From positions 31,194-95,193 of the forward strand of contig CAZYCL010000001.1 of assembly GCA_964645795.1 (NCBI GenBank): a stretch of DNA of 64,000 nt, given 5' to 3'. This DNA is from an uncultured Planctomycetales bacterium. GTDB taxonomy: Bacteria > Omnitrophota > Gorgyraeia > Gygaellales > Profunditerraquicolaceae. The position numbers and the translations under genes were made by a program. Every line of letters begins with the position of its first letter. Position 1 is the first letter of the stretch. Under the pieces are notes generated by a model. It worked only from the letters and a program-made list of their open reading frames with translations, was not told where the DNA came from and ran no database searches. This document shows positions 2,628 through 55,969 of the stretch, in pieces.

Positions 2628-2645
2628 GATACTAAGAAAGGAAGA

Positions 2646-3056: not shown

Positions 3057-3075
3057 TATTTTAAGGAATCGGGGA

Positions 3076-3489: not shown

Positions 3490-3531
3490 CTTGCCTCTCC
3501 TTTCTAATGATTCTTGATAAATATCTTATTA

Positions 3532-3561
3532 AATATACACCTAAAAAAGGCTACTTGTCAA
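3532..3561 (-). promoter_or_regulatory. Candidate sigma70 promoter for the major pilin gene (TTGACA-18-TATATT on the minus strand)
   Basis: Minus-strand sequence TTGACAagtagccttttttaggtgTATATT sits about 45 nt upstream of the pilin ATG. Confidence 0.3.
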
Positions 3562-3567
3562 CTATAA

Positions 3568-6527: not shown

Positions 6528-6545
6528 TATTTTCTCTAAAAGGGA

Positions 6546-8126: not shown

Positions 8127-8157
8127 CCTCCTGGGAATTAATCCCTTTACCAACGAT

Positions 8158-8616: not shown

Positions 8617-8617
8617 G

Positions 8618-9130: not shown

Positions 9131-9134
9131 AGTA

Positions 9135-11523: not shown

Positions 11524-11722
11524 TCTTTCTTAGGGATATCCTGTAATCACCGTTGCCTTTGACAACGATGACGTGACCTTCTCTGGCCAACCACCCCAGG
11601 CTCATAAGGACGTTATCCCGGGGCCGGTCTATGCCTCCTGTCAGCTCGCCAAGCCCTACTTCGCCTCGCTGGTCCAAAAAATGCCAGATCTCCCCTGCCA
11701 CGATACCTATCTCGGTAATCAT
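11516..11722 (-). CDS. Small winged-helix DNA-binding-like protein
   Basis: 68 aa with a wHTH-like pattern (LGELTGGIDRPRDNVLMSLGWLAREGHV). Confidence 0.4.
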   Translation of the reverse strand: MITEIGIVAGEIWHFLDQRGEVGLGELTGGIDRPRDNVLMSLGWLAREGHVIVVKGNGDYRISLRKND

Positions 11723-35391: not shown

Positions 35392-37593
35392 CTATTCTAA
35401 GCCGGAAATATCTCTGTTGAACTGCTCTTGGTCGTAATCTTCGTTTGCCTTGTAGATCTCATAGGCCTTGCGCAGAAAATCAAGAGCCTTTGGTTTATCC
35501 AAAATCTTTTTATATAACAGCCCGAGGTTTCGATAGGCAACTGCCAACTCCGGTTGCGCGCCTATCTCTTTACTGATATTAACACTGGTAATAAACGAGC
35601 TTTGCGCATCTTCATGCCTGTCCATTTCGACATAAAGCTCGCCCAGCATGTTATAGTCGCTTGCCAGGCTTAATCTGTTGTTATGCAACAGATCGGTTTG
35701 CAGGCCCTTTTTATAGTAATCCAGGGCTTTTTGATACTGCTTCTCAAACAAGTAAATCTCTCCGATGTTAAAATAGCAATCGCTCAGCTCTGCCTTAAGG
35801 TTGGTCTTCTCAAAAATATCGAGGCTTTTCAAATAGAAGTGTTTGGCCGCTTCAAAATCTTCCTTGTTGGAGAACAAAAGACCCATATCGAAATAGTCAC
35901 AGGCGAGATTATACCTGTGCTCGTAGATCCTCTGCCTTTCGCGATTTATTTCAGAGCTTTTAGTAAGCAACTCGATGGCCCCGGCATAATCCTTCTTATC
36001 TATGTATAAAACGGCCGTCTTCCTTAGCGCTATTGCCTCGCCAAGCTTATCGCTTATCTGCCGGCTTAGTTTTAGGGCCTTCTCATAAAACTCGAGCGCT
36101 TTTTTAAGCTGCCCTTCGCCGTGGTAGAACCATCCGATAGAGGCATAGGCTCTTGAAAGGTCGGTGATGCTGTTCTCTTTTTCACTTTGCAGCGCGTAGC
36201 GGTAGTAATTTTGTATCGCCTCCTGCTTATTCCCAACCCTCCTGTAAGCCTGGGCCAAAACTGGATAAACCGCCAGGTATCCGGGGTCAGAAGTTGAGGC
36301 TCTTTTTAATACTTCAATCGCCGCCTGATTATCCCCCCGTAAATATGAAGCCTTGCCTTTAAGAAAGAAATAATAACTTGTCGGCTTCAAAGTGGGCGTC
36401 TTGACAAAAATATACGAGCCCAGGGCAATTATGCACATCGAAACAAAGATCGCCGCCATAATCTTAGGCTTAAGATGCATTTTCTTCTTTTCGGGGAAAG
36501 CCACACGCTTGTTCCTGACCTTAAGCAGTATGAAATTCGGGTCTCCGTATAGAACATAACTTGCCCAGGCGATATTGGATAAGCCATACTCCCGGCATAG
36601 CTTCAGGCGGGCCAAACGCATGCTCTCGCCTACGGACCTGCCGATGACCAAATGGTGATAAAACTCCCTGGCAAAGCTTAAGCTCGACTCATCGTCAAGC
36701 CTGCGTATTGAACCGATATAGTGCCTGACTCCGGAAAATAAGAATGCCGAAGCCAGGCTGTAATTTTTCTCCCTGAAGCTTGCCCGCGTCAGGTCAAGTT
36801 CGTTTTTAGCGGAATAACAGGCGTTTGAAAAAACAAGGCTGGGCAGCGGCGCGCTTTGGCCGAGTAGCGTTATGTCGTGCGAGGTAAACCTTCCATCCTT
36901 TAATAACCATCCGGTATTATCGGGCTTATTGAAATCATATTCGCAATGTCCGGCGAAATGCACGACATCGTAATCGCATATGGCTTTTTTGACAAACAGC
37001 CTGTCTACCGAAGACGATTTTAAATCGATATGGATGTTTGATCGTTTTGCGTCAAACTGGTCGCGGATATCTACTCCTTCCAGGTAAGATGATTTGAGGT
37101 CGCCGGTAGGGTCGGCCAATATCAGCATCCTCATCACATCCGAGAAACTCCTGACCCCCGAAGAATAGACCTGCTGCGTGGTCCTTATTGACCTGCCCAG
37201 GTTATACTTTAAACAGATGAAATTGTCACCGTCATAAAGCAGCTCCCAGGGCAGGTTTACCAGCCCCTCATCCACCAAAAGCACCAGATTCTGGTTTAAC
37301 TGTCCGGCCAATTTTTCCTTGATCGAGCGCGGTAACAGATGCTCCCAAAGAAACTGGCCGCTTTTTTTCAGCCCTTTGAGGAATACCGGATCGGGGTCTT
37401 TGCTGCGGTTGACCTTATTTACTAAAGCCGAAATTTCGCGGCAGACTATATCCAGCTCGACAAATGATACCTTGTGACGGTTGTAGTATCTGACGGTAGA
37501 AACGGCCTTTTCTTCACCGTACAATCCGACCGAAAGACAATCCTCCTGCCTGGCAATCTCGAGAAACTGCGTCTTCTCTGCTCTATCCTGCAT
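35392..37593 (-). CDS. CHAT-domain (caspase-like) protease with a central TM helix and C-terminal TPR repeats
   Basis: 733 aa. VVHFAGHCEY and LVFSNACYSA are the CHAT His/Cys dyad motifs. A TM helix (IMAAIFVSMCIIALGSYIFV) and ~8 TPR units follow. Confidence 0.8.
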   Translation of the reverse strand: MQDRAEKTQFLEIARQEDCLSVGLYGEEKAVSTVRYYNRHKVSFVELDIVCREISALVNKVNRSKDPDPVFLKGLKKSGQFLWEHLLPRSIKEKLAGQLNQNLVLLVDEGLVNLPWELLYDGDNFICLKYNLGRSIRTTQQVYSSGVRSFSDVMRMLILADPTGDLKSSYLEGVDIRDQFDAKRSNIHIDLKSSSVDRLFVKKAICDYDVVHFAGHCEYDFNKPDNTGWLLKDGRFTSHDITLLGQSAPLPSLVFSNACYSAKNELDLTRASFREKNYSLASAFLFSGVRHYIGSIRRLDDESSLSFAREFYHHLVIGRSVGESMRLARLKLCREYGLSNIAWASYVLYGDPNFILLKVRNKRVAFPEKKKMHLKPKIMAAIFVSMCIIALGSYIFVKTPTLKPTSYYFFLKGKASYLRGDNQAAIEVLKRASTSDPGYLAVYPVLAQAYRRVGNKQEAIQNYYRYALQSEKENSITDLSRAYASIGWFYHGEGQLKKALEFYEKALKLSRQISDKLGEAIALRKTAVLYIDKKDYAGAIELLTKSSEINRERQRIYEHRYNLACDYFDMGLLFSNKEDFEAAKHFYLKSLDIFEKTNLKAELSDCYFNIGEIYLFEKQYQKALDYYKKGLQTDLLHNNRLSLASDYNMLGELYVEMDRHEDAQSSFITSVNISKEIGAQPELAVAYRNLGLLYKKILDKPKALDFLRKAYEIYKANEDYDQEQFNRDISGLE

Positions 37594-39024: not shown

Positions 39025-40731
39025 TTACTTGCCGAATACCTCTTTTAGGATGGTGCGGGCGGCGTTTTCGGCAATCAGCCTGTTGCCTTTATCCGTGCAG
39101 TGGCCGAAGACGCCTGCGAACATATCCCTAAAGTATTCTTTTGAAGGGCTTTCCCTAAGGGCATCTTTAAATACCTGTTCGTTGTCCACAAAGACAACCC
39201 CGTCTTCCCTGCCCCGAAAGATGCTCTTTAGGGGGACCAAACTGCGCACAGGATACTGCATACACACCAGCCTGATCCCCCTCTCATCGCAGGCCCGCTT
39301 AAGGCTAAGGTAATTATCGGAGGTCATTTTATCGTAATACATCGTTGTTTTACGGGCTGACCTCTTCTCATATTGTTCGGCCAGCTCAGGCTTTTTCATA
39401 TCTCTATAGAGCCCGGATATCAAAAGCAGCAGCCACCTGTCGTTCGAATTCAGCCCCAATGCTTTCTGCAAAAATAACTCTGCCTCAAGGAACCTGCCTT
39501 GAAACCTGAGGACCTCCCCCATCCTCATATGCCCTTCATACCTTTCGGGGTCCATTGCTATCAGCTTCCTGAACAAGGTTTCGGCTTGCGCCGGATCCCC
39601 CCTGGACAAATAACAGCATCCCATATCCAAATTTCCTTGATAGTCCCCGGGGTTCAACCACGCTGCTTTCGCCAGTGCAGCATCGGCTTCACTGCGTTTA
39701 ATTAAAGATTTCGTATAAAGACTCTTGGCTTTTGCTAAATTACCCGCATCCTTCTCAAGCAAATGCTCATCATCCAGGATAATAGCCTGTTCGTTGCAGG
39801 CCAACGTGAGATTAATGAATGCGAGATAATTATCCGGCTCTAACTCCGCAGCCTTTCTATAGGCTTGCTCTGCCTGGCCAAAATCTCCGTATCGTATATA
39901 AAATTCACCCAATTTCATATATGAATCAAAAACCGGCTCTGACTCTATTGGTTTCTTCAATTCGGCTTCAGCCTCGCGGATCCTGTTCATCAGGCAATAC
40001 AGATTCCCTAGTTCGGCATATCCTTCATAACGATTGGGCCATACTTCTATGGCCTTCTTCAATGCGGCTTCGGCGGAAGAAAAATCCCCGCGATCGCGAT
40101 GGCCTCTGCATTCTTCCAGGTATTCATCGAAGCCCTTATCAGGAGCTTGCGGGCGACTTTCATCGTTGTGTTTACCGGGTTTCCTGCTTGACGAATAGGC
40201 ATATTGCGCATCTCTGAACTTGGCGGCAATGTGCATCTTAAGAAAGTTTAAGAGCCGGTATAGCTTAAGCGACATGTAAAAATGGCGGTCCCGGGAAGCA
40301 TCCGACAGATTAACGGGTATGTGCGGACCAAAGTCGTTTATCCCCATCATGACAACGATCATGTCCGGCTCATAATGGTCGAGGCTTGATTGCAAGGATT
40401 GCACTATGCGCAGGGAGTTAGCGCCACTAATGCCCTTATCGATAACGCTGAATTTTATCCCGATATTGCTCTGATTGAGTATCTCTTCCAGGGGCCCCGG
40501 CCATTGTCCCTGGGTAGTGGATTCACCCAGGCACATGATACGGTAGGAGCCTTTTTGCCTAGAAGACCGAAGGTTCTTGTATTCCTGCAGTGAGACGATG
40601 AAAAATCCGGCCAGGCGCATCCCCGCCTCTACGATAATCAGAACAAGGATCAGCCCGAAGAATGACAAATATGCTTTCTGTCTTAAAGAAGTCCTGGCTT
40701 CGGTAGCCTTAGATGCAGTCATTTGGAACAA
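39025..40731 (-). CDS. Membrane-anchored SGNH/GDSL-hydrolase-like protein with central TPR repeats
   Basis: It has an N-terminal TM helix. RIMCLGESTT (GDS-like block I) and MMGINDF (block III-like) are present. TPR units lie between aa ~190 and 440. Confidence 0.5.
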   Translation of the reverse strand: MFQMTASKATEARTSLRQKAYLSFFGLILVLIIVEAGMRLAGFFIVSLQEYKNLRSSRQKGSYRIMCLGESTTQGQWPGPLEEILNQSNIGIKFSVIDKGISGANSLRIVQSLQSSLDHYEPDMIVVMMGINDFGPHIPVNLSDASRDRHFYMSLKLYRLLNFLKMHIAAKFRDAQYAYSSSRKPGKHNDESRPQAPDKGFDEYLEECRGHRDRGDFSSAEAALKKAIEVWPNRYEGYAELGNLYCLMNRIREAEAELKKPIESEPVFDSYMKLGEFYIRYGDFGQAEQAYRKAAELEPDNYLAFINLTLACNEQAIILDDEHLLEKDAGNLAKAKSLYTKSLIKRSEADAALAKAAWLNPGDYQGNLDMGCCYLSRGDPAQAETLFRKLIAMDPERYEGHMRMGEVLRFQGRFLEAELFLQKALGLNSNDRWLLLLISGLYRDMKKPELAEQYEKRSARKTTMYYDKMTSDNYLSLKRACDERGIRLVCMQYPVRSLVPLKSIFRGREDGVVFVDNEQVFKDALRESPSKEYFRDMFAGVFGHCTDKGNRLIAENAARTILKEVFGK

Positions 40732-42397: not shown

Positions 42398-42425
42398 TTG
42401 ACAAAATCCGCCCGGACGCTATAAT
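42398..42425 (+). promoter_or_regulatory. Near-consensus sigma70 promoter (TTGACA-16-TATAAT)
   Basis: TTGACAaaatccgcccggacgcTATAAT lies about 165 nt upstream of the 42589 start codon. Confidence 0.55.
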
Positions 42426-42588: not shown

Positions 42589-44850
42589 ATGAAAGAGGAT
42601 ATTTTTACATTTGCCAGGAACATAATAACGCTCCTGCCCGGTGCGCCTGATGATCCTGCCTTCCGGCAAACCGCAAACTCTTTTATCTTGCTGCTTCAAG
42701 CGGATGCGCAAATAAAGAAAAAGGTCTTTGGTTTATCGCCGGCCGCGGACGAAACAGCGTTCAAGAATAAAATCCTCCCCTTTTTCGAAGAACAAACCGG
42801 GATTAAAAAGACCCCTTTATCTGAGGAAATACTGCGGTTCCTGGCCTGTGCAGCTGCATATATCATCGTATTCTGCGACACTCAAACCTGCGCAATAGAA
42901 AGATTCCTCTTTATCGAGAATGCGGCTTTGGGCAATAAAAACAATTACTACCTGCAAAACGCCATTAAGGAGGTAACCGGCGTCCTTTCGGATATGTCTT
43001 CGAAGAATTTCATAATTAATGAATCCAGCCGCTCCGAGAAGCTCTCGCCGGTCTTAACATACCTTCCAAGGATCCATATGCGCTCCCCTATTAACGCCCA
43101 CCTTTCATATTTATCGGTAACCCGCGATGGATACCACGATTCTGTATTTTTTCCAGAGAAAATATCGGAAAAGGATGAGGTTGAATATTTAAAAGCATTT
43201 TATGATTTTGCCGACTTCTACCCAAAAATAGAGCTGTGGAAAGAATCTGCCTGCCTGGCAGCGGTTAAAGTTGCCTTTAGGATCATCAAAGATTCGCCCG
43301 GGAAGAATTTAAAGCTGCTGAAGAGGCGCATGGATATGATTTGCAAAAAAGATGCTGGCTACTTAAAGGTCTGGAGGCAGATTGAAAATATGCAACCGGA
43401 CATGATCGCCGGTAAGTTCGGCTTTGAATCATTAAAGATAAGGGAATTAAAGACCGTGCTTGATTTCTGCTTGCTGCTTATAGCTGTGGCATTGTGGTCC
43501 GCAGGCGGGCCCCGCATGCAGTCAACCGCAAGGCGCACGATAGAAAGATTCCGGCAGAAGTATAAAAACAATTCCTCGATTATCAAAAAAACGGCTTTAT
43601 GCCTGCTCTCCATGGATTTCGCTTTCATGCAAAATAACGCAATCGGGGCATTAATGCACGATGAACACCGCTCAATACTCAATGCGCTCAAAGCCATCAA
43701 CCCTGAAACTCATGTCCGGCCTCTTGTCGGACTGCAGCCGTGGGCCAGAGACAGCTTTGCGTGGCTTGATGAAGAGTTCCGCCTGTTTCTGCAACCCAGC
43801 CTCGGGAATTTGCAAAAGATCAACTACCGCGGGAATCTTACCGAAGGAGGTAATATCGTCTTCGGTACCGCGAAGGGAAAATTTATACTGGTATCAAGAG
43901 AATCGTCTAAAGATGAAATTGAGCTCATCCAGCTCTACCTGGAAACTAGAAATCGGCGAATACAGATGTACGTCTTGCCCGGCGGCTTTACCTGGACAAG
44001 AAACACGCGCACAAAAGAAGATATTATCCTGAACTCCAGCCATATAGACTCGGTGATCAATATTGTCCCCTCCGGCTGCACGATGGACAACAGAATTAAG
44101 GTTATCGTCGACCCGCATTACTATGGCATGGTAAAAGAGGAGCCAGAATTCAGCCGTTTTATCAGGGAGCAGGAAATTTGGCCTGAAGACGTGGTCATAA
44201 TTGACGAAAGGGAAAAATATCTCAACCTTGCGAATTTTAGCATTGTCATTGACCAAAAAAACCGAAAAATGGCCCTATTCAACAATGACAAGGGGTATAC
44301 CCTGCACCGCCTGAAAATTAAAAAAGAGTGCCTCTTTAAAACAGGCATTGAAATTACCAACATATCGGCGTTCAACGGCAGCATCCGCTGCGTTACTAAT
44401 GTCTTCCCTTCCTCTCAGCTCAAAAATGAAGGGCAGCTCTTAATTGCCGTAGGCGCCGGAATACCCCAGGAATCGGAAGCGCGAATACTGGCCCTTTTCG
44501 CCGATAAGAAACACCTGCTAAAACATCTCAAGCGCTCATGGATATCGTGTTTATTTATTCGCCATTATACTGGGAAAAGCTACTCTGAATTCGACGGCTT
44601 GAGCCTGACCTTATTGATCGGCCTTAACAGAAGCGACCTTGACAACCCTGAACGCGCACGTATTTTCATTGAGCGCAACATCAACCGTTACTGCTCTCAC
44701 TTAAAAAGGAAAATGGGAGTATCATCTTGCGGGGAAACCATAACCGACGCCCCATCCGCCTCCCCTGGAATCGATTGTTTTATACGGCGCGGCTCAGGGC
44801 AAACAATAAGCTATGATGAGTTCATCTCCATGCCTCAGGGAAAACCCTGA
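42589..44850 (+). CDS. Large hypothetical protein with a ~380-aa N-terminal domain of unknown function and a C-terminal agmatine deiminase/PAD_porph-like guanidino-modifying domain
   Basis: 753 aa with a good SD (AAAGAGGA). The C-terminal half carries W-A-R-D-S, TEGGNIVFG and a terminal NGSIRCVTN motif. In agmatine deiminase/PAD-type enzymes the corresponding motifs are WxRD, EGG(S/N)I..DG and GGGNIHCIT with the Cys nucleophile. Confidence 0.6.
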   Translation: MKEDIFTFARNIITLLPGAPDDPAFRQTANSFILLLQADAQIKKKVFGLSPAADETAFKNKILPFFEEQTGIKKTPLSEEILRFLACAAAYIIVFCDTQTCAIERFLFIENAALGNKNNYYLQNAIKEVTGVLSDMSSKNFIINESSRSEKLSPVLTYLPRIHMRSPINAHLSYLSVTRDGYHDSVFFPEKISEKDEVEYLKAFYDFADFYPKIELWKESACLAAVKVAFRIIKDSPGKNLKLLKRRMDMICKKDAGYLKVWRQIENMQPDMIAGKFGFESLKIRELKTVLDFCLLLIAVALWSAGGPRMQSTARRTIERFRQKYKNNSSIIKKTALCLLSMDFAFMQNNAIGALMHDEHRSILNALKAINPETHVRPLVGLQPWARDSFAWLDEEFRLFLQPSLGNLQKINYRGNLTEGGNIVFGTAKGKFILVSRESSKDEIELIQLYLETRNRRIQMYVLPGGFTWTRNTRTKEDIILNSSHIDSVINIVPSGCTMDNRIKVIVDPHYYGMVKEEPEFSRFIREQEIWPEDVVIIDEREKYLNLANFSIVIDQKNRKMALFNNDKGYTLHRLKIKKECLFKTGIEITNISAFNGSIRCVTNVFPSSQLKNEGQLLIAVGAGIPQESEARILALFADKKHLLKHLKRSWISCLFIRHYTGKSYSEFDGLSLTLLIGLNRSDLDNPERARIFIERNINRYCSHLKRKMGVSSCGETITDAPSASPGIDCFIRRGSGQTISYDEFISMPQGKP

Positions 44851-45935: not shown

Positions 45936-46817
45936 ATGCTCTCCCTTGTCGCCCCCAATATAATCAATGACACATCATTCGAATACCTGATCAACCAGCT
46001 GCCGGAGCCGGAGAAGATCCAGGAAAAAGACCTGCTTATTGACCTGGGCATAACCGAAGCCGTATACCCTTACGGGCTGCTTGGAACGCTAGAGTTAGGT
46101 ATCCACCTTAAAAATATGGGCTTGAATCCCAGGCTTAACCTCCCAAAAAATGAAAGCGTGCTGCAAAACATGAAAAGCAGCGGGTTCATAGAAATGGCAA
46201 GCCTGGCCTTCAAGGAACTTATGGGAGCGTGCACAAAACCCGCCGAAGACCCCTCGGTGCTGCTTAAGGTGACTCCGGTTGAAAGTTTCAAGGACGTGCA
46301 CAATATCGTATCCAGCGTAAGAAACAGGATAAAAGAGAACAATTATAGCGAAGACGATTACACCTGGGACAACATTATCGTAGCCATATCCGAAATCTGC
46401 CAGAACATACCCGAACACAGCAAAGACAAGGGTTTTGCGCTCATAAACATTTTATTCAACAAGGCCCACAAGAAGCATCTGGTCAATATCGTGGTAATGG
46501 ACCTGGGCGTAGGCATCAGAAGCTCGCTGGATAACAAGTTCTCTCCGATATTCAGAGATAGGTGGGGTGACCGCCTGGCCATACATAAGACGCTCTTTGA
46601 GGGCGTATCGCGTTATGATGACCCCGGAAGGGGCAACGGGATCATCAGGACGAGGGAGCTGGTAGTGGAGAAATTCAAAGGAAATATGAGCCTGCGCTCA
46701 GGGACTGCCAAGCTCTGGGGCAAGATCCCCGGCTGGGAAATAGAGAGGCTATTTAGAAAACCTTTGGTTTTCTTGCCCGGCGCCCAGGTCAATATCACCA
46801 TACCCCTTTCCCAATAG
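45936..46817 (+). CDS. GHKL (HATPase_c-like) ATP-binding protein, anti-sigma-regulatory-kinase-like, with an N-terminal domain of unknown function
   Basis: N-box-like EICQNIPEH, G1-like VVMDLGVGI and G2-like GRGNGIIRTRE motifs. Its start abuts the HDOD stop. Confidence 0.5.
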   Translation: MLSLVAPNIINDTSFEYLINQLPEPEKIQEKDLLIDLGITEAVYPYGLLGTLELGIHLKNMGLNPRLNLPKNESVLQNMKSSGFIEMASLAFKELMGACTKPAEDPSVLLKVTPVESFKDVHNIVSSVRNRIKENNYSEDDYTWDNIIVAISEICQNIPEHSKDKGFALINILFNKAHKKHLVNIVVMDLGVGIRSSLDNKFSPIFRDRWGDRLAIHKTLFEGVSRYDDPGRGNGIIRTRELVVEKFKGNMSLRSGTAKLWGKIPGWEIERLFRKPLVFLPGAQVNITIPLSQ

Positions 46818-46820
46818 GAC

Positions 46821-46880
46821 AGGCAGCTTAAAAAAATACGCAGATTTACGCGCGACGGTTCGGTTGTTGCGTTAAATCTG
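46821..46880. terminator. Bidirectional terminator hairpin (14/15-bp stem ACGCAGATTTACGC...GCGTTAAATCTGCGT) between convergent genes
   Basis: An A7 run precedes the hairpin and a T-rich run follows it. It separates the plus-strand island from the minus-strand giant gene. Confidence 0.65.
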
Positions 46881-46890
46881 CGTTTATTCT

Positions 46891-49800
46891 TTACTGAAGG
46901 GGTTTTTCCCAGGCCGCGATATAACGCTTGGCCTGCTCTACATCCGGATCGTTCGGGGCAAGGGTTATATACTTCCTTAGGTGCATCAGCGCCCTGGTGC
47001 GGTCCTGCATCTGCTCGCCGTATAAAACTCCCAGGTTATAAAGCGCCTCGGCATCTTCCGGGTTAGCCAATAGCACCTTCTCAAACTCCGCAACTGCCTT
47101 CATGTAATCCCGGTTCTGGCTATAAAGGACGCCGAGGTTATAGTGAAGAGTGGCATTCTCCTTAAGGGCGCTGGTCTCCTTCATCAGCTTATACTCGTGC
47201 TCCAACAACCTATAAGCTTTATGCAACTGCTCGTAATCCGTCCTCATCTTCTTAATGGTATCGGAGAGCACCCTGTTCTGGCTTTCTGATTCCCTGGCCA
47301 GCTGGTTATACTCCTGCATGCGGCTATTCTTTTCCATCTGCGCGCCGTCCAACTCGCTCTTTAAGAACGCTGCCTTTTGCTGAAGGGCTTGGTTGGTCTC
47401 TTCAAGCGCCAGCCTCTTGTTCTCAAGGCTATCCTTCTGCTGATTTAACCAGCGCAGCGACTCCTGGGCGTTCTGCAGGTCCTTGCGTAACTTTTCCAGC
47501 TCGCTGCTTAAGCCAGCGGTGACCGCTTCCTTCTGGGCCTTTAACTGTATCATCTGGGTGTTCAGCGCTACATTCGACTCTTCTTTCTCCACCCGCAGCT
47601 TGGCTAACTCAGCGTTCAGGCGGTTTATCTCGGAATCTTTCTGGAGGAGGTTCTCGTCCTTCTGGGCCTGCAGTTCGTCAAGCTCCTGTGCGCGCATAGC
47701 CTTGAATTGCGAAAGGGTCTCCTTAGCCTGTGCGGCCTCCCTCTGGAGAGCGGCGACCTGCTGATTCAGGCTCAATAGCTGGTTATTGGAGTCCTGCTTC
47801 TGACGGGTCATCTCGACTATTTGCGCCTGAAGGGCGACCACCTGATCGGATAACTTAGCATACTCCTTGCGCAGCGACTCTTCCTGTATGGCCGTAGTCT
47901 GGAACCTGCGTTCGGCATCGCTTGAGCGCTTCTCCAGCTCTATGAACTTATCCATCAGCTCTTTCTTTTCCCTTGCCCAGCCCTCGCCTGTCCTTGATAA
48001 ACCCGAAAGCTTGTCTTCCGCGGTCTTTGCTGCATACTGCAGGACCTGGGCCTGAGTTTCCAGGGCAAGCTTCTGATTCTCTAAATCCTTGATCGTTGCC
48101 AGCAGGTCGCGCTTCTCTCCTTCAACATCGTCTTTCTGCCGGCTGTATTGAAGCATGGAATCCTGCATATCCTGGACCGCTTTCTGATAACGCGCGATCT
48201 CCGAAGTAAATCCGGCGGCCTCCGCATCTCTCTGCTGCTTTAGTTGATTGAGCTGGGTGAGGAGATTGGTAACATCCTCTTGCCTCTTTGCCTTAATCTC
48301 ATCGCGCTGCTGCCGCAGCTGCGCCAGTTCGTCCTCACGCTGCTGTAGCCTGCCTGCCAGCCTCTCCAGCTCCTGATCCTTCTGCTTCTTCGTATCGTCC
48401 AGACGGCTCTTTAGGATAGCCGACTCTTCCTTCTTCTGGCCCCTAAGCTGCACAAGCTGCTCATTGAAGAACTCCTGGGTGCTCTGAAGGTCTTTCTGCA
48501 TCTGGGCGTTTTCCGCAGCCAGCGCCTTCAAATCGGCTTCTCTGCGCTCAGCCAACAGCTGCATCTGGGCTTTCAGCTGGGTTATCTCCTGTTCCTTCTC
48601 GGCGTACTGCTGGGCCTTTTCCTGCTTGGCTGCTGCCAGCTCCTGGCTTAGGATATCCAACTGCCCCTGCGTTTCCTGAAGGCTTGCGACTATGTCGCCC
48701 TTTTCTTTTTCAGCCGCTTTAAGCTGCTCGACCAATACGCTTACCTGCTGATTCAAATCCTGGCCCTGCTTATCCAGGCCCGCCTTCTGATCACACAGCT
48801 CCTGGTGTTTAACCATCAGCTGACGGTAGTTATTATCGATATCGTTCTTTTCGTTGTTAAGCTGGCTGAGTAATTCGGTCTTCTCCTTGACGTCTTTGCG
48901 CAGCTTGAATATCTCCTCGTTGAGGTCCCTGAGCATTGTTTCTTTCTGGCTGTTGAACTGTGCCAGCTCGGCGTCACGCTGCTTCTCTAATGCTGCGATA
49001 TCGCCGTCCCTCTTTTCTCGCGCAAGGCTTACCTGTTCCTTAAGCTCTGTGATCAGGGCCTCGCTCTGAAGGCGCAAGTTTGCCAGGTCCTGCTCGATCC
49101 TTGCCTTGGCGTCGCCGGTCCTTACCATCTCCTGATTAAGCTTCTCTATCTGCTTCTGCCTGTCGTTCAATAGAGTCTGGAACTCCTGCTCTTTCTGGCT
49201 GCCGGAACGCGAAAGCTGCTCATTACGTTTAGTGATATCCGCGAAATCCTTTTCCAGCTGCGCGAGCCTGGTTTTCAAGGCCAGGTTTTCCTGCTGCACT
49301 GAGTCTTTTGACGAAGAAACGGTGTTGACCTTGGTTTCCGCGGCTATGAGCGCATCACGCAGGTCTTTGACCTGCTTCTCAAGCGTAGCTTTCTCGGGGA
49401 CAAGCTGCGCTATCCTGTTGTGCAGGGAAAGCTTCTCCTGTTGGCCGGATTCGTAGTTCGCGGAAACCGTCTTTATCTTCTCATCCGAAAGCTTAACCGC
49501 TTCCTGAAGCCCCTTGATTTGTTTTTCCAGAAGAGACTTCTCCTGTGCGAGGTTAGCTGCCTGGAGCCTGGTATCATCGAGCTCTTTCTGCTGCCTGATA
49601 AGCGAATCCCTTAAAGCCCTGGTATCGGACTCCTGACGGCTCTTTAGCTGCGCCAGCTCTTGGTCTTTCTGGGATTTGAGCTTAGCAAGCTCGAGCCCGA
49701 GCCTGGTCAAGTCCTGTTCTTTTTGCGCTCCTGACTGGACAAGCTGGTCGTGCCGCTTAAGGGCCTCGGAGAGCTGCCTATTCAGCTGCGACACCTTATC

Positions 49801-52596
49801 CTCTAACCCCAACTTCTCCTTAAGCGCTGATTCGTTGGCTTTGGAGATAGCGGTGAGCTTTGCCTGGCCTTCCTTCAGGGAGCTGCGGGTTTCCATTATC
49901 TGTTTCTCAAGGTCCGCCTTTTCGCGCTCCAGCCTTGCTGTCGTTTCCCGGCTGTCATTAAGTTGCCTGCGCGCCTTTGACAGGTCATCCTTTATTCCTT
50001 TTACTCCGGCTTCCATACCCTTCTTTAACCGCAGTAACTCATCGTCATGGGCAGATTTTAATCTTGCTATCTGATCAAGCAGGCGTGAAGCCTCGGTCTC
50101 CTTCTGATTCTTTAACTGCGCCAGCTCATTGCCCACTTTACCCAGCTCATTGGAAAGGGCTTCAATCTTCTTAGAACGCACTGCCAGTTCATCGGCCAGC
50201 TCTTTTTCGCTATTGCGGCTTAAAATCTTAAGATTCTCCTGGTCCCGGCGCAGCCCTTCGATGGTCGTCTTCTGCACTTCAAGCAGCAAATTAAGCTCTT
50301 GTTCTTTCTTGGCGGCCCTGGATACCAGGTCTTCATTGCGCTTTAGCGCATCGGCAAGATTGCTTTCTGCCTGCGTAAGCTTGCCTTGCAAGGCGGATTT
50401 CTCCTGGTTGGCGGCCTCTTTGGCATTAGAAAGCATGCCCGCGTTGTCTTCGGACTCCTTTAGCGCGCCCTTAAGGTCGCCGATAGCCTTCTCTGCCCTG
50501 CCCTTTTCCTGCGTAAGCTGCGCGTTTGCCTGCCGCAGCTGGTTTATATCATTGCGTAAACCGGCGATCTCGTCTTTGAGCTTAGCGGACTGGGCATCAA
50601 AGCCGGAATTAAGCTTAAGCAGATCCTCGTCCCTCTTGGACTTAAGCTTGGCTATCTGATCAAGCAGCCCCGATACCTCGGAGTCCTTCTGGATCTTTAG
50701 CTGTGAATAATCTTTCTGGGAACGCTGCAACGACTCCCTGGTATTGGCCAACTCGCGGCGCAGCTCGTCAAACTCTTTGCCGGACTTCTGCGATTCCAGA
50801 GCCAGCGAGTCCTTCTGCCGGATAAGCTCGTTAAACCTGGACTGGGAATCGGCTAATTGGGTAGATACCTTCCTGAGGTCATCCTGTAAAGACTGGCGTT
50901 CCCGGGAAGATGTTTCAGACTGTTTCTGGGCTTGCTGCAGCTTATTGTTTAGATCGGCTATTTCCCTGCGCAGTGATGAATTCTCCTGGCTGAGGGCATC
51001 GTTGGTCCTATTGAAACCGGCCATTTTCTCTTCCAAGGGTTTCATCGAAGATTTCAATGACTGGACTTGTTTTTCCAAAGAAGACTTCTGGCCTTCAAGC
51101 TCCCTGATACTGGCGTTAAGCTGCGACTGCAGTTTCTCAGAAACGTCACGCTGCTGCACGGCCTTGACCAGGGCGTCCTTAGCTGAATCCAGATCTCTCT
51201 TTACAGCCGACAGCTCTGCACCCATATTTTTGGATTCTGAGGCGAGCCTATTCTTTAACGAATCGATCTCCTGTCGAAGCTGGCTGGCAAGTGATTCTTT
51301 TTGCGCGCTAAGACTGGCGTTTTCCTCTCTTGCCCTGGCCAGATCTTCCTTATATTGGGATTCTAACTGGGAGTACTTGCGGCCAGAATCCTGGTCCTGT
51401 TTCTCAAGCCTGGCCTTTTGCTCGGAAAGGTCCTTTAGCCGCAGCGTCAACTCTCTCTGCTGCACATCCTGATACTCCTTATCTTTTTTAATCCGGGCAA
51501 GCTCATCCTGCGCATCCCTTAAGCCCTTACGCAGGGCCAATACCTCTTCCTCTGATTTCTGAAGCTGGCTTGATCTTTGTTCCCTGATTTTAACCTGCTC
51601 CCGTTCATGCTGCTGCTTTAACTGCTGCACTTCCTGCTCTTTTTGGCCCTTCAGCTGGGTAAACAACGCAGTTAACTCATCCAACTGCTTCTTCGTCTTT
51701 AAAAGCTCTTCTTTAGACTGGGAGCCGGATTTATTAGCCGCATCCAGCTGTTGCCTAAGCTCGGCTATTTGATTGCGAAGCTCCTGAGAAAGCTGTCCGG
51801 ACTCCTGGTCCTTCTGGCTTTTTATCTTGGCGATCTCATCAAGAAGGCGGCCAGACTCATCCTCCTTCTCTTTTGCCAGCTGGTCATTGCGGTCTCTCAA
51901 CCGCCCTATCTCCTGGCTAAGAAGCTCTACTTGATTGCGCGCCTGCATCAAGGAAGAGTTAAGCGCATCGTTATCCCTTAAGGCAGCCAGCCCCCTGCTT
52001 TCCTTGGCGTCGATATCCTGTTTTAAGGCGCTGTTCTGGTCCTCAAGGCTGCGCGCTCTCTGGGCCAGCTCCTGGAGCTGGCCATTGAGGCCGGAGACCT
52101 CATTCTGCAGGAGATTGACGCTATCCTGGAGCTGGCGCTTCTCCTGGCTGCCGGCTTCGATGATCTTGTTTAATTCGGGAAGCTTCTGCTCAAACTCATT
52201 TAACGCGTCTTTTAAATTCTTGTTTTGCTGGGAGAGACTTTCGTTCTTTTGCTCAAGGCTGCGCATGGAAACTGCCAGGTCCCGATTTTCAGAGACGGCT
52301 GAGCCGGTATAGCGCATGATCTGCGCCAAGGTATCTAACGCCCCTTCCAGCCCCTGCCTGATCCGGGACAGCTCTACACCGAGGCTTTGCAAAAGCACGC
52401 TGTCAGAGCCTCCGCTCGACTTCAAGGTCTGCTCAAGCAGGCTTATATCTTGGGCAACGGCTTTTAACTGGATAGCAAGCTTGGATTCATTTTTGGATGA
52501 TGAGGGTTGAGCGCAGCAATGACGGGGACAGACAAATACGGCGGGAATAAAAAATAGAGCAAAAAGAATAAAGTAGGGGGATTTCTTCATCAACAT
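46891..52596 (-). CDS. Giant secreted coiled-coil protein (1901 aa) with internal ~150-200 aa repeat modules and C-terminal TPR repeats
   Basis: It has an N-terminal hydrophobic signal and ~1750 aa of Q/E/K/L-rich heptads with a recurring LLDQIAKLKSQKDQE motif. The C-terminal TPR region is NATLHYNLGVLYSQ...AEALYNLGVLYGEQ. Confidence 0.8.
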   Translation of the reverse strand: MLMKKSPYFILFALFFIPAVFVCPRHCCAQPSSSKNESKLAIQLKAVAQDISLLEQTLKSSGGSDSVLLQSLGVELSRIRQGLEGALDTLAQIMRYTGSAVSENRDLAVSMRSLEQKNESLSQQNKNLKDALNEFEQKLPELNKIIEAGSQEKRQLQDSVNLLQNEVSGLNGQLQELAQRARSLEDQNSALKQDIDAKESRGLAALRDNDALNSSLMQARNQVELLSQEIGRLRDRNDQLAKEKEDESGRLLDEIAKIKSQKDQESGQLSQELRNQIAELRQQLDAANKSGSQSKEELLKTKKQLDELTALFTQLKGQKEQEVQQLKQQHEREQVKIREQRSSQLQKSEEEVLALRKGLRDAQDELARIKKDKEYQDVQQRELTLRLKDLSEQKARLEKQDQDSGRKYSQLESQYKEDLARAREENASLSAQKESLASQLRQEIDSLKNRLASESKNMGAELSAVKRDLDSAKDALVKAVQQRDVSEKLQSQLNASIRELEGQKSSLEKQVQSLKSSMKPLEEKMAGFNRTNDALSQENSSLRREIADLNNKLQQAQKQSETSSRERQSLQDDLRKVSTQLADSQSRFNELIRQKDSLALESQKSGKEFDELRRELANTRESLQRSQKDYSQLKIQKDSEVSGLLDQIAKLKSKRDEDLLKLNSGFDAQSAKLKDEIAGLRNDINQLRQANAQLTQEKGRAEKAIGDLKGALKESEDNAGMLSNAKEAANQEKSALQGKLTQAESNLADALKRNEDLVSRAAKKEQELNLLLEVQKTTIEGLRRDQENLKILSRNSEKELADELAVRSKKIEALSNELGKVGNELAQLKNQKETEASRLLDQIARLKSAHDDELLRLKKGMEAGVKGIKDDLSKARRQLNDSRETTARLEREKADLEKQIMETRSSLKEGQAKLTAISKANESALKEKLGLEDKVSQLNRQLSEALKRHDQLVQSGAQKEQDLTRLGLELAKLKSQKDQELAQLKSRQESDTRALRDSLIRQQKELDDTRLQAANLAQEKSLLEKQIKGLQEAVKLSDEKIKTVSANYESGQQEKLSLHNRIAQLVPEKATLEKQVKDLRDALIAAETKVNTVSSSKDSVQQENLALKTRLAQLEKDFADITKRNEQLSRSGSQKEQEFQTLLNDRQKQIEKLNQEMVRTGDAKARIEQDLANLRLQSEALITELKEQVSLAREKRDGDIAALEKQRDAELAQFNSQKETMLRDLNEEIFKLRKDVKEKTELLSQLNNEKNDIDNNYRQLMVKHQELCDQKAGLDKQGQDLNQQVSVLVEQLKAAEKEKGDIVASLQETQGQLDILSQELAAAKQEKAQQYAEKEQEITQLKAQMQLLAERREADLKALAAENAQMQKDLQSTQEFFNEQLVQLRGQKKEESAILKSRLDDTKKQKDQELERLAGRLQQREDELAQLRQQRDEIKAKRQEDVTNLLTQLNQLKQQRDAEAAGFTSEIARYQKAVQDMQDSMLQYSRQKDDVEGEKRDLLATIKDLENQKLALETQAQVLQYAAKTAEDKLSGLSRTGEGWAREKKELMDKFIELEKRSSDAERRFQTTAIQEESLRKEYAKLSDQVVALQAQIVEMTRQKQDSNNQLLSLNQQVAALQREAAQAKETLSQFKAMRAQELDELQAQKDENLLQKDSEINRLNAELAKLRVEKEESNVALNTQMIQLKAQKEAVTAGLSSELEKLRKDLQNAQESLRWLNQQKDSLENKRLALEETNQALQQKAAFLKSELDGAQMEKNSRMQEYNQLARESESQNRVLSDTIKKMRTDYEQLHKAYRLLEHEYKLMKETSALKENATLHYNLGVLYSQNRDYMKAVAEFEKVLLANPEDAEALYNLGVLYGEQMQDRTRALMHLRKYITLAPNDPDVEQAKRYIAAWEKPLQ

Positions 52597-52654
52597 TTAA
52601 GGGCCGCGAAGCTGCCGAGTAAAATATAAGCTTATTTCAAATGTTTCAATTGAA

Positions 52655-52682
52655 ATTATATCACTCAAGCCTTCCCTGTCAA
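52655..52682 (-). promoter_or_regulatory. Consensus sigma70 promoter (TTGACA-16-TATAAT) driving the giant coiled-coil gene
   Basis: Minus-strand sequence TTGACAgggaaggcttgagtgaTATAAT lies about 58 nt upstream of the ATG at 52596. Confidence 0.6.
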
Positions 52683-52699
52683 GCAATTTCTTGCTTTTT

Positions 52700-54223
52700 T
52701 TAGCGAAGTTTGGACTTCACAGCAGGCGCAGGTGGCTCGCTTACCGATGCAGCAGGAGCATCTGCGGCCGGGACAGAAGGCTCTGTTGACAAAACAGGGG
52801 TCCCGCCTACTGGTGCAGGGGGTTCGCTAGCGGCTAAGGCGGGGTCCTTTGGCAAATCTACGGCAATAGCCGGGACCGTAACCACGGTGCCGGTATCTCT
52901 GGATATCAAGATCGCTGAAGCAGCCTGATCACCCTCAACAACCGCAGGCTTTACTTCAGGCCAAGGCTTGACCTCGGCTAAAGGCTTTATTTCGGGGGAG
53001 GGCTTGATTTCAGGCAGCGGCTTTATTTCGGGCGAGAAGGCGGAGGCGGCTGCCGGAGGTATATCTTTGGCTGCCTTCTTTAGCTTACTCTTTATCTGTA
53101 TCTCGGCTACGGCAGGCGGGCCTTTTAAATCCGTTATTGCCCGCTCAAGCCTCGTCTTTATCTCAAGCAGATAAAATTTGGCCTGTGTGTTATAAGGGTC
53201 GAGCTCCAGCACATACTTGAATTCGCCGGTAGCCTCTAAGAACCTGTTTTCTCGGAAAAACTCAATCCCTTTATCAAAGTGCGACTGAATATCACGCAGC
53301 CTTTTTTCTTCGGCGGCCTTGGCCATATCTTCCTGGCGCTTTCTCTCCTTCTCGGCAGCCAGCCTTGCATCCTCTTCCCGCTTCTTGGCCAGATACTTGT
53401 CCCGCTCGATCTTTTTGTTGGCCTGGTCGATCACGTCCCTGGCCTTAGGATTGCCTTTATCGATGACAAATACCTTCTCGGCCTGTCTGATGGCCGCCGG
53501 GTAATCGCCGTTCTTGATCATCTCGCGGGCCAGATATAGAAGGCTGTCGATCTCCATCTGTTTCTTGGCAAACTCAAGCTTTTTAATCTCAAGCTCTGCG
53601 TCTATTATTACTTTCTTGGCCGCGATCTCGGACTCAAGCGCCGCCCTTCTTTTAGCCAGCTGCGGATCAAGTTCTGTGATCTGCGGCTGGACAGACTCCT
53701 GGACAAGCTCCTTAGCAGGTTGTTTTGCTGGCGCTGCGGACCGAGGAGCAGCTGCCTTATCGGCTGGCGCCGGTACTACAGGCTTAGGACGAATAAGAGA
53801 AGACAGTATCCTCTGTGACCCCCTTTTCCTCCTGTCAATGCTTTGTTTGAGGAGCCCGCCGAGTTCATGCTTGATATCCTCGTTGAGCTTCTCGTCTATC
53901 TCGCTAATGAGCTTTTTGGCTTCATTGGTGAAAGTCTTCTCTTTCATTCCGGATTCCAAGTTTACGATATCACGAAAGCAGACGATAGCCGCGGCGTAAT
54001 CATTATTAACCATATAATTCCTGCCCATCTCCATGTATATCTGGACGTCCTGCTTGGCAGCTTCCTCCCTAGCCTTGGCATCCTGCTCCTTAATGTAGGA
54101 CTTTTCGGTCTTGAACCATAAGGAACGGAAATCTTTTTCAGAGTGGACCTGGGCAAAGCAAAGTAAAGGAAAAGTAACCAAAACTAAGAATATGGTGGCC
54201 GCTAAGGACCTTGCTGTATTCAT
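52700..54223 (-). CDS. Secreted TPR/coiled-coil protein with a C-terminal Pro/Ala-rich (EIKP)n repeat region
   Basis: It has a signal peptide, TPR-like units and a coiled coil. The C-terminus is PEIKPLPEIKPSPEIKPLAEVKPWPEVKP followed by a PA-rich tail. 15-bp DNA repeats lie at ~52955-53045. Confidence 0.7.
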   Translation of the reverse strand: MNTARSLAATIFLVLVTFPLLCFAQVHSEKDFRSLWFKTEKSYIKEQDAKAREEAAKQDVQIYMEMGRNYMVNNDYAAAIVCFRDIVNLESGMKEKTFTNEAKKLISEIDEKLNEDIKHELGGLLKQSIDRRKRGSQRILSSLIRPKPVVPAPADKAAAPRSAAPAKQPAKELVQESVQPQITELDPQLAKRRAALESEIAAKKVIIDAELEIKKLEFAKKQMEIDSLLYLAREMIKNGDYPAAIRQAEKVFVIDKGNPKARDVIDQANKKIERDKYLAKKREEDARLAAEKERKRQEDMAKAAEEKRLRDIQSHFDKGIEFFRENRFLEATGEFKYVLELDPYNTQAKFYLLEIKTRLERAITDLKGPPAVAEIQIKSKLKKAAKDIPPAAASAFSPEIKPLPEIKPSPEIKPLAEVKPWPEVKPAVVEGDQAASAILISRDTGTVVTVPAIAVDLPKDPALAASEPPAPVGGTPVLSTEPSVPAADAPAASVSEPPAPAVKSKLR

Positions 54224-54237
54224 CTCTTCCTCGCTCT

Positions 54238-54678
54238 TTAGTAACGCGGGATGTCCAAGATCGTTTCCGGGTATATCTTGTTAGGATCCGTTATCTGGCG
54301 GATGTTGGCCTTGAAGATCCAGCGCCATTTAAAAGGATCGTTGTAATACTTCCTGGCTATCTTCCAAAGTGACTCTTTCTTCTGCACGCGATGCACGGGC
54401 ATCTTCGCACCCTTAGCCCCGAGCTGTGCGGCGCGGTACCTTTCCCTTTCAAGCTCTGCCTGGGCCATCTTTGTTTCGGTCTGCGACCTGATCAATTCAT
54501 CCTGCATCTTAAGCAGGTCCTGGTTGAGCTTTATCCAGGCCGCCTCTTCAACCTCGATCATCCGGGGCTTTGCGCTTCCGCCCCGTATCTGGGCATAGGC
54601 GATCGCGCTTGAAAATACCAGCCCCAGGCATATGCATAAGACCAGAAATCCCGACCCGCTTAAAACATTCTTCTTCAT
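54238..54678 (-). CDS. LysM domain protein with a signal peptide and coiled-coil
   Basis: The C-terminus HRVQKKESLWKIARKYYNDPFKWRWIFKANIRQITDPNKIYPETILDIP is a LysM-like pattern. Confidence 0.65.
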   Translation of the reverse strand: MKKNVLSGSGFLVLCICLGLVFSSAIAYAQIRGGSAKPRMIEVEEAAWIKLNQDLLKMQDELIRSQTETKMAQAELERERYRAAQLGAKGAKMPVHRVQKKESLWKIARKYYNDPFKWRWIFKANIRQITDPNKIYPETILDIPRY

Positions 54679-54680
54679 CT

Positions 54681-55463
54681 CTACCCCCCTAATATAAGTG
54701 TAGCGCTTTCAACGGATTTACCCTTATTCTGCTTCATCTCTTCTTTTTGCCTCACCCTCTCAATACGCTCTTGTCCCAGCGCCTGAAATTCGGCATCCCT
54801 GGCCTTCTTCTCTTCCAGCCGCTCGGCCCTGAGCTGCTCTTCCATCTCTTTCTGGTCCAAAATCATCTTTTCTTTTATCGCGGCTTCAAGGGTATCCACG
54901 ACCGTGCTCAGGGCGTATTCCGTGAACTTATTTATCGAGATCAGATAAAGCTTGTGCCCCATAATGGGATTTCTCTTATCAACCTGGCCGCGGTAATAAT
55001 AGTTAACGCTCTCCGTCAGCTTGACGCTGGCTGCATCAAAGACCTCCTGGGCGCTCCAGATGGTCTCTTTGGTATTGATATCCAAAAGGGCCAGCTTAAC
55101 TCCCAGCTTCAACGGCTCAACATCCCGGTAATCGAATACGCTGCCCTTAAGGACCGCGTCTATATTGGAAAGCTTCTCGGGAGAAGCAAGGTCGCTTTCG
55201 TTGATCATGTGTATGACGTACCAGCCGCGCTTATTTAACTCCGTAGCCAACTGCTTAGTAACCTGCGCAGCAATATCCTTTCTAAATGCAGTATCGTTCT
55301 TAAGGGGGACCAGGCCTATGTCGTGAAGCTCAAATCTCCTGAATTCGGGGTGGGAGTATTTATTGGAGAGTTTGTAACTTTTTAAAAAAGAGTTGATTTC
55401 TGCGCAACCGCAAAGGCCCAACAGGAGCGTTATGGCTGTGGCAAAATTTAGGATTTTTTTCAT
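54681..55463 (-). CDS. Putative lipoprotein with a C-terminal E/K-rich coiled-coil
   Basis: Signal peptide ending LLGLCGC (lipobox-like). 260 aa. Confidence 0.55.
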   Translation of the reverse strand: MKKILNFATAITLLLGLCGCAEINSFLKSYKLSNKYSHPEFRRFELHDIGLVPLKNDTAFRKDIAAQVTKQLATELNKRGWYVIHMINESDLASPEKLSNIDAVLKGSVFDYRDVEPLKLGVKLALLDINTKETIWSAQEVFDAASVKLTESVNYYYRGQVDKRNPIMGHKLYLISINKFTEYALSTVVDTLEAAIKEKMILDQKEMEEQLRAERLEEKKARDAEFQALGQERIERVRQKEEMKQNKGKSVESATLILGG

Positions 55464-55504
55464 GGCTCTTGACTTTTCACTCCGTCTAGTGTAACTTATT
55501 CTTA

Positions 55505-55969
55505 ATGAGAATACGCCGCCCGGAAAACAGAGTTACGCTCGAGAAACCCGCCGCCCTTGAAAGAAAGAGCATCGCCATAAAAGGGGCGCTTAGAAAAGAA
55601 ACCAGCCTTTTCCAACAGGAGCTGCAAGCCTCGCAGAAGCAACAGCTTACGGAAAAATTAAAGGCCGTAGTCATCGAGATCGATGAGCTAGGCCAAAAGC
55701 TTGTCAAGACGCGCACCGTAGATATCTTAACCCAATACAAAGAACTTATCAAGAACTTTCTGAAAGAAGTCGTCCAGAACCTGTATTTATTGAAGGAAGA
55801 AATGCACTTTGACACCAAGGGCAAGCATAAGGCCATGATCCTGGTCAAATCCGTCAATAAAAACCTTGAGGAGCTTGTTAAAATGGTCCTGGATAAAGAA
55901 ATCAGTAATCTTAAGCTTCTGGAAAAGGTCGGTGAGATCAAAGGCATGCTCATTGATCTATACTCCTAA
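55505..55969 (+). CDS. Hypothetical helical protein (possibly DUF327/YaaR-like)
   Basis: 154 aa, K/E/L-rich and helical. The opposite-strand ORF is low-complexity Ser/Leu-rich, which is typical of an antisense artefact. No clear SD is present. Confidence 0.35.
   Translation: MRIRRPENRVTLEKPAALERKSIAIKGALRKETSLFQQELQASQKQQLTEKLKAVVIEIDELGQKLVKTRTVDILTQYKELIKNFLKEVVQNLYLLKEEMHFDTKGKHKAMILVKSVNKNLEELVKMVLDKEISNLKLLEKVGEIKGMLIDLYS

Follow-up and report, generated by a model that had tools for sequence, protein, structure and literature searches.

A 1,901-residue exported coiled-coil protein with a C-terminal TPR tip and its uncharacterised, secretin-linked protein family

An exported coiled coil with a tetratricopeptide repeat (TPR) tip is already known from CpoB, and TPR proteins which act as secretin helpers are known from the pilotins. 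A long rod joined to a TPR domain and encoded in translational coupling with secretin genes, as found for the protein family described here, was a new combination in the literature searched. The longest family member seen here, in the following called the giant, is encoded in a stretch of 64,000 nucleotides (nt) of contig CAZYCL010000001.1 (assembly GCA_964645795.1, an uncultured bacterium of the Omnitrophota according to GTDB), to which we refer as the window. Its coding sequence was found at positions 46891-52596 of the minus strand, stop codon included; the features of this gene and of its neighbours given below lie on the same strand unless the plus strand is named. On balance, we consider it probable that the giant is a Sec-exported envelope rod, probably dimeric, which docks through its conserved TPR tip and serves as a tether or scaffold.

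The giant is laid out like CpoB/YbgF: behind a Sec signal peptide comes an oligomerising coiled coil in the N-terminal part, and the C-terminus holds a small TPR domain of the kind that docks on envelope partners. However, CpoB/YbgF consists of ~260 amino acids (aa) with a trimeric coil of ~60 residues, while the giant comprises 1901 aa and looks dimeric, and the giant's family is tied to secretins where CpoB is tied to TolA. The domain TolA_bind_tri (PF16331) matched giant aa 135-198 with an E-value of 2.7e-4 and 21.4 bits (cut-off 30.1), TIGR02795 was not reported for the giant and reached 26.4 bits in the relative P0017 (cut-off 90.1), and tolB, pal or tolA genes were not found on either side of the giant. 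Membership in CpoB/YbgF was rejected on domain cut-offs, architecture and gene context. The pilotins PilF/PilW/Tgl, TadD, and MshN are, like the members of the giant's family, TPR proteins encoded together with secretins, whose assembly or stability they help. The family loci also resemble mshL-mshM-mshN in the GspA/MshM-like AAA_22 ATPase found beside the secretins. In contrast to the giant, with its 1,780-residue rod, pilotins are lipoproteins with ~6 TPR repeats and without a coiled coil. Weak matches to the NCBIfam models Tgl, PilW and NlpI were obtained in relatives of the giant. The giant was not accepted as a pilotin, since it has no lipobox and only two TPR repeats plus a cap, and since the Tgl/PilW scores of its relatives (25-42 bits) remained far below the cut-offs of 154-225.

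FimV promotes the assembly of the PilQ secretin. FimV/HubP proteins are, like the giant, very long, acidic and repeat-rich, and they combine LysM peptidoglycan binding with TPR-like C-terminal motifs. In FimV, the LysM domain is part of the same polypeptide and the long TPR-motif region is cytoplasmic, past a transmembrane segment, whereas in the window LysM is found on a separate neighbouring protein and both rod and TPR of the giant lie after the signal peptide. No sequence match of the giant to FimV/HubP was found. Finally, the length of Braun's lipoprotein Lpp and of similar exported coiled coils sets distances in the envelope. The uniform coil of the short paralogues of the giant (196-241 aa, ~32 nm) recalls such an envelope spacer. 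Lpp itself, with 58 residues, is trimeric, lipid-anchored and covalently bound to peptidoglycan, whereas the giant is ~30 times longer, carries a TPR tip and has no lipobox.

The giant gene is intact. An earlier note, made from the letters of the DNA only, had claimed one open reading frame (ORF) of 5.7 kb, and indeed 1901 codons without any break were counted from the first ATG. The DNA of window positions 46801-52800 was 100% identical in three independent Logan assemblies (L001-L003; ERR14964774, ERR4524290, ERR14964780), and neither a frameshift nor a stop codon appeared in any of them. Codon usage is native, with a correlation of relative synonymous codon usage of 0.82 to the housekeeping genes of the window. 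The ORFs on the plus strand opposite the gene, rightly suspected as antisense artefacts, are Ser/Leu/Phe-rich shadows of the real frame. In public gene calls the giant is a product of 1835 aa beginning at the internal GTG codon 67 (window 52396-52398), because GGAGG sits 10 nt upstream of this codon. With this annotation the signal peptide is missing from the database entry and the export of the giant is hidden. Exact look-ups of the 1901-aa and the 1835-aa product found neither of them on record.

The likely translation start is the second ATG at codon 3 (52590), which gives 1899 aa and aligns with the start of the orthologue in the related locus L007. The long start of this orthologue has a Shine-Dalgarno sequence, and both the hydrophobic leader and the counterpart of giant aa 30-66 are kept. 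As there is no start codon between giant codons 3 and 58 and as L007 keeps the leader, the leader must be translated. The N-terminus of the giant reads MLMKKSPYFILFALFFIPAVFVCPRHCCA, followed by QPSS. Judged by eye, the leader consists of a KK n-region, a hydrophobic core of 17 residues and small residues at -3/-1, with a predicted cleavage between CCA and QP, which assigns aa 1-29 (52510-52596) to the signal peptide; the equivalent site in the L007 orthologue is PRVVFS followed by QSP. A lipobox cysteine in proper context was not found in the giant. The N-terminal export signal of the earlier description is a Sec-type signal peptide, conserved in the L007 orthologue and family-wide.

Behind the signal peptide, core-type residues recur with a periodicity that peaked at 3.54 residues with 41 times the mean power, and the 7/3 harmonic was visible too. 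A confident heptad register was assigned to 1699 of ~1780 residues, with Leu at 51% of the d positions, Leu/Lys/Ile/Asn at a, and Glu/Gln/Lys/Arg at e and g. By the established rules for coiled coils, Asn and Lys at position a favour dimers; the rod is most likely a parallel two-stranded coiled coil. If fully extended, it would measure ~264 nm. The earlier note had called the coiled coil uninterrupted. Its great length, ~1,780 residues with strong heptad periodicity, was confirmed, but the term is approximate, given five strong Pro/Gly breaks (aa 62, 140, 520, 1067 and 1538) and ~19 register shifts.

The rod is built from modules. The N-terminal coiled-coil module (aa ~30-650, 50647-52509) is collinear with the L007 orthologue and weakly collinear with the N-termini of the long family members P0017, P0030 and P0034. 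It overlaps an expansion zone (aa ~550-1220, 48937-50949) of tandem ~175-200-aa modules with the motif LKxQK(D/E)xE...LLDQIAKLK; in the dot plot such tandem units of ~175-200 aa extended across aa 550-1150. As an example, aa 602-776 and 793-972 share 37% identity (77 bits, shuffles at most 34 bits). A segmental duplication of aa ~250-650 onto ~1200-1650 was visible in the dot plot as well; its second copy (aa ~1180-1650, 47647-49056) lies on a diagonal with an offset of ~870-1000 aa and scored up to 70 bits. The last module of the rod (aa ~1540-1811, 47164-47979) is shared with the family and collinear with its long members. The diverged internal repeats proposed earlier are thus real, with self-matches of 65-78 bits in the expansion zone compared to at most 34 bits in shuffles, and the recurring motif held up in the relaxed form Q[KR][DE]x[ED]xxx[LFIM], which occurs 13 times versus 0.24 times expected from shuffles. 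As far as can be read from the repeats, the giant grew by internal duplication.

The rod ends in the family-signature TPR domain (aa 1812-1897, 46906-47163), with the pattern HYNLGV...YNLGVLY...RYIAAW. Pfam TPR_17, TPR_8 and TPR_1 were found above cut-off at aa 1815-1891. An AlphaFold2 model of the C-terminus, computed from a 62-sequence alignment, reached a predicted local distance difference test score (pLDDT) of 96; in this model one helix of ~145 residues runs straight into TPR helix A and is followed by four more helices. The two to three TPR units expected from the first inspection became two TPR repeats plus a capping helix, and the predicted TPR fold of the tip can be regarded as certain. 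The nearest solved folds were designed consensus CTPR proteins (root mean square deviation 1-1.7 Å over 85 residues), with the YbgF TPR structure 2xev among the matches at rank 50. Sequence and fold searches of the PDB with the giant returned generic consensus-like TPR proteins only and no functional lead.

A word-indexed homologue search with the full-length giant gave 0 matches, probably because of its low-complexity words, as an exhaustive phmmer search with aa 702-1901 succeeded. The latter search uncovered the family, together with many generic TPR proteins. At least 56 of the best 150 cluster representatives end in a signature C-terminal domain, HYNLGV...YNLGVIY...KYIxTWE. Ahead of this domain, family members have a coiled coil that varies greatly in length and, at the N-terminus, a signal peptide or an anchor. 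A profile of the domain added 114 proteins; among the eight profile matches named by NCBI organism seven were Candidatus Omnitrophota or Omnitrophica. A metagenome scan yielded at least 424 relatives, and the product name given by NCBI to family members is 'tetratricopeptide repeat protein'. The earlier statement that no characterised homolog is known therefore holds to the letter, but it overlooks a large family of uncharacterised proteins. Scans of GTDB species genomes with the giant and with the family of the neighbouring lipoprotein described below gave no matches, so that the lineage is either not represented there or masked, and no description of this coiled-coil/TPR family was found in the literature searched, Omnitrophota genomics papers included.

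The giant is a member of this family. It scored 157 bits (E-value 7e-48) against a family hidden Markov model built from alignment A2, and no other ORF in the window exceeded 40 bits. The signature HYNLGV...A..EF.K.L.L.P.D...YNLG.IY.E....KA...F..YL......D.....KYI..W is present at its extreme C-terminus, and its signal peptide is followed by continuous coiled coil up to the TPR, as in the family. Over the last 350-700 residues it is collinear with long members, with BLASTP E-values down to 6e-49; the C-terminal coil module and TPR share 28-31% identity with the last ~420 aa of long members (E-values of 1e-34 to 1e-41). In NCBIfam, neither the giant nor ten of its relatives matched any model above cut-off, and in Pfam only generic TPR families reached it.

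The genes of the family are closely linked to secretin genes. In 84 family loci, which were fetched, searched for ORFs and labelled by BLAST, with Pfam assignments for the recurrent locus, a secretin gene of the PilQ/GspD type adjoins the family gene in 61 cases. For 41 pairs of secretin and following family gene the median gap was ~1 nt, with an overlap of 4-14 nt in many of them. The core of the recurrent locus consists of secretin 1, a position-1 family gene, secretin 2 and a position-2 family gene. Secretin 1 is preceded by a gene for a GspA/MshM-like AAA_22 ATPase and then a weakly GspC-like gene, while the position-2 gene is followed by genes for small exported proteins, a second AAA_22 protein, an HD_5 gene, and genes for a membrane coiled-coil protein and a Wza-like exporter. 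This tight linkage narrows the likely function of the family. As an additional observation, further ORFs of 2239-2706 aa recur a few genes downstream of the double-secretin locus (L051, L058, L065, L078); at least one of them, with 2367 aa, may correspond to the multi-TPR match P0031 (2367 aa) of the exhaustive search.

In a neighbour-joining tree of the C-terminal domain, calculated without bootstrap support, position-1 and position-2 proteins fell into separate clades, and the giant grouped with the long, position-1 clade. The coils of the short, position-2 proteins are uniform, with 196-241 aa in 25 of 26 proteins and a median of 217 aa, corresponding to ~32 nm (range ~29-36 nm). The long paralogues vary between 228 and 1277 aa. 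Of the complete members, 26/27 short and 9/11 long ones start with a cleavable signal peptide or an N-terminal anchor. A ruler-like role, which the earlier note had considered for the giant, would fit the short paralogues of uniform length better.

We favour the envelope rod on four grounds: export signals occur throughout the family, its genes are translationally coupled to secretins, the coil of the short paralogues has the size of a periplasm, and exported envelope proteins are encoded next to the giant. After cleavage of the signal peptide, ~1,780 residues would form a long alpha-helical coiled coil with few hinges, the last rod helix of which would lead straight into the compact C-terminal TPR domain. 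The tip would then dock on a ring-forming assembly of the outer membrane or associated with peptidoglycan, with the rod as strut or tether. The docking partner would be the secretin in the family at large and, in this genome, maybe a complex of the neighbouring lipoprotein, LysM and TPR proteins. The giant itself would have arisen from a member of the long clade by internal duplication and would have left the secretin locus. A periplasmic location, as opposed to the cell surface, is likewise what we infer rather than observe.

Several observations weigh against this explanation. The rod of ~260 nm exceeds the width of the periplasm about ten times; it can therefore not be a simple trans-periplasmic strut and must run parallel to the envelope, be folded back on itself or extend beyond the cell. 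The giant is not located beside a secretin gene, its upstream neighbour being the TPR protein of a lipoprotein-LysM-TPR operon. The sole secretin of the window (6546-8231), at a distance of 38 kb, belongs to a type IV pilus cluster that contains no family gene; it is followed there by PilB. In the related but more distant locus L008 the genes found upstream of the giant are kept and followed by a terminator, and the giant is absent. No Shine-Dalgarno sequence precedes the first ATG of the giant, and gene callers prefer the internal GTG-67 start. Finally, the modelled TPR tip departs little from the generic consensus, and no ligand can be read from it.

Since the rod is too long for a simple strut, the main competing explanation is a secretin-dependent secreted or surface fibre, an adhesin or coat filament, which would pass through Sec and then through the secretin, the family genes encoding secretin cargo and not parts of the machine. 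We regard such a fibre as unlikely, but as the most serious of the competitors. The tight linkage between family and secretin genes would suit it, as would the widely varying lengths in the long clade (228-1901 aa with the giant) and the cleavable signal peptides, not membrane anchors, of the long members. Omnitrophota have been proposed to attach to host cells (PMC10066038), which is in line with a fibre as well. The giant also diverges fast, at 37% identity compared to 48-81% for its neighbours, a pattern common in surface proteins; however, the same is also expected of any coiled coil bound only by its heptad pattern. Pfam and NCBIfam scans found no adhesin, Ig-like or beta-helix domains in the giant. 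Its most conserved part is the C-terminal TPR, a domain that typically serves docking inside the cell or in the periplasm, and many short paralogues have uncleaved N-terminal anchors and a uniform coil that matches the periplasm. These three observations argue against a fibre.

Transcription signals were found on both sides of the giant. The textbook consensus promoter noticed upstream proved to be a perfect sigma-70 site at 52655-52682, with TTGACA, a 16-nt spacer and a TG-extended TATAAT (score 12/12). Two perfect TTGACA-N16-TATAAT sites occur in the 64-kb window versus 0.01 expected. The -35 box and the extended -10 box of L007, whose orthologue of the giant is only 37% identical, match those of the window exactly, whereas the spacer and the rest of the 5' untranslated region (UTR) diverged; a phylogenetic footprint of this kind gives good reason to believe that the promoter is in use. 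According to the proposed mechanism, the giant would be transcribed from this strong, conserved promoter of its own, and read-through transcription from the upstream operon may occur. Directly after the -10 box a palindrome, TTCAATTGAAA, was detected (52644-52654), which occurs once in the window and is identical in L007 (~11707-11717), where the flanking UTR diverged; it can also be written as TTCAATTGAA(A). It is possibly an operator, a start-site element or an initial transcribed element. A putative terminator-like hairpin with a T-run, found by a consensus scan, lies at 46828-46853, 38 nt past the stop codon of the giant. A search of the whole window against Rfam at gathering thresholds gave 0 matches, and hence the 5' UTR of the giant contains no known RNA element. 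The second perfect promoter site was located on the plus strand (42398-42425), ~160 nt upstream of an ORF of 753 aa (42589-44850, plus strand) without a Pfam or NCBIfam match.

Secreted coiled-coil, TPR and LysM proteins had been thought to follow the giant. The LysM, TPR and lipoprotein genes lie upstream in the direction of transcription and so precede it. In order of transcription a HEAT/TM gene, a DUF327 gene on the opposite strand, the lipoprotein gene, the LysM gene and the gene of an exported TPR protein were found, and the giant begins after a gap of 103 nt. Still further upstream, FliS and pseudaminic-acid-type flagellin-glycosylation genes are encoded. The exported TPR protein (TPR507, 507 aa, 52700-54223) has a signal peptide and TPR matches and is 58% identical to its counterpart at the same position in L007; its C-terminal ~100 aa are Ala/Pro-rich with PEIKP/PEVKP repeats, resembling the rigid periplasmic spacer of TonB. 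The exported LysM protein (146 aa, 54238-54678), predicted to bind peptidoglycan, scored 26.6 bits against Pfam LysM (cut-off 20.9) and is syntenic in L007 and L008. The lipoprotein (260 aa, 54681-55463) has an invariant Cys20 and a predicted fold of the PelC/TolB-N/HpaA/FlgT type; its AlphaFold2 model had a pLDDT of 70, and the PelC dodecamer was the best Foldseek match (E-value 4e-7). The gene of the DUF327/YaaR family (55505-55969, plus strand; Pfam E-value 4.5e-35) is conserved in L007 and L008, and the minus-strand ORF 55486-55953 is its antisense shadow. Alone among its neighbours, this gene is read opposite to the surrounding operon; in L007 the public call took the wrong strand.

The L007 orthologue is collinear with giant residues 3-657 (36% identity over 646 aa, E-value 1e-103), and the neighbouring genes of L007 are 48-81% identical to those of the window. 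The HEAT-DUF327-lipoprotein-LysM-TPR block is syntenic in the window, in L007, where the giant is present, and in L008, where the block adjoins flagellin, FliD, Maf, FliS and PseB/PseC genes. Together with the predicted fold of the lipoprotein, this arrangement hints at a module of the flagellar outer ring or of PelC type that has not been described. In the 84 family loci, BLAST found no homologue of the lipoprotein, LysM, TPR507, HEAT, DUF327 or FliS proteins, and the idea of a single conserved super-locus was rejected on these grounds. The window is unusually rich in TPR proteins, with further examples at 13734-16232 and 39025-40731 besides the one at 52700-54223; in a protein of 733 aa (35392-37593, minus strand), numerous TPR repeats are joined to a CHAT protease domain. 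The type IV pilus-like cluster (1567-10700, minus strand) comprises a PilM-PilN fusion (9135-10700), PilO, a T2SSB-like gene (8158-8616), the secretin, PilB, PilC and a pilin-like gene, and a MotA/ExbB gene and an 832-aa TPR protein are located just beyond it.

These neighbours would also allow the giant to be part of a periplasmic scaffold of the flagellum, an accessory disk or cage around the motor, built with the PelC/FlgT-like lipoprotein, the LysM and the TPR proteins, in analogy to the H/T rings of Vibrio or the PflA/PflB/FlgP disks of Campylobacter. In the window and L007 the block has FliS and flagellin-glycosylation genes as neighbours, in L008 flagellin, FliD, Maf and FliS; the fold of the lipoprotein matches the ring-forming FlgT, HpaA and PelC, and only 103 nt separate the block from the giant. 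Adjacency of genes is, however, the sole link. L008 keeps the block, with its terminator, and lacks the giant, the giant has its own promoter, and flagellar genes or homologues of the block were found in none of the 84 family loci. Thus, we judge a flagellar role improbable, slightly more so than a surface fibre.

A more specific version of the envelope rod assumes periplasmic struts coupled to secretins. The short proteins would act as a ruler of ~32 nm from the inner membrane to the secretin, and the long ones would lie in the plane of the envelope, the giant forming a skeleton or belt of ~260 nm which spaces outer-membrane machines. We consider this a doubtful, speculative extension. If true, the belt would link secretins and perhaps the flagellar outer ring, its ~260 nm being comparable to the diameter of an ultra-small cell.

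That the giant is a cytoplasmic SMC-like or cytoskeletal coiled coil, possibly translated from GTG-67 with an untranslated or non-functional hydrophobic N-terminus, is highly improbable: the GGAGG 10 nt before GTG-67, the lack of a Shine-Dalgarno sequence at the first ATG and weak matches, below threshold, to the coiled coils of SMC and Rad50 would favour it, but signal peptides are found family-wide, and L007, whose long start is preceded by a Shine-Dalgarno sequence, keeps the leader and aa 30-66 at the protein level. Membership in SMC/Rad50 was rejected, as TIGR02168 reached 124.7 bits (cut-off 567) on coiled-coil stretches only, ATPase heads are missing and a signal peptide is present.

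Returning to the exported envelope rod and its family, the two paralogues of the recurrent locus represent a natural experiment on length, in which the coil of one comprises ~217 residues and that of the other from ~200 to 1,780. If these rods set distances in the envelope, the spacing and anchoring of secretin machines would become testable in deep-branching uncultured bacteria.

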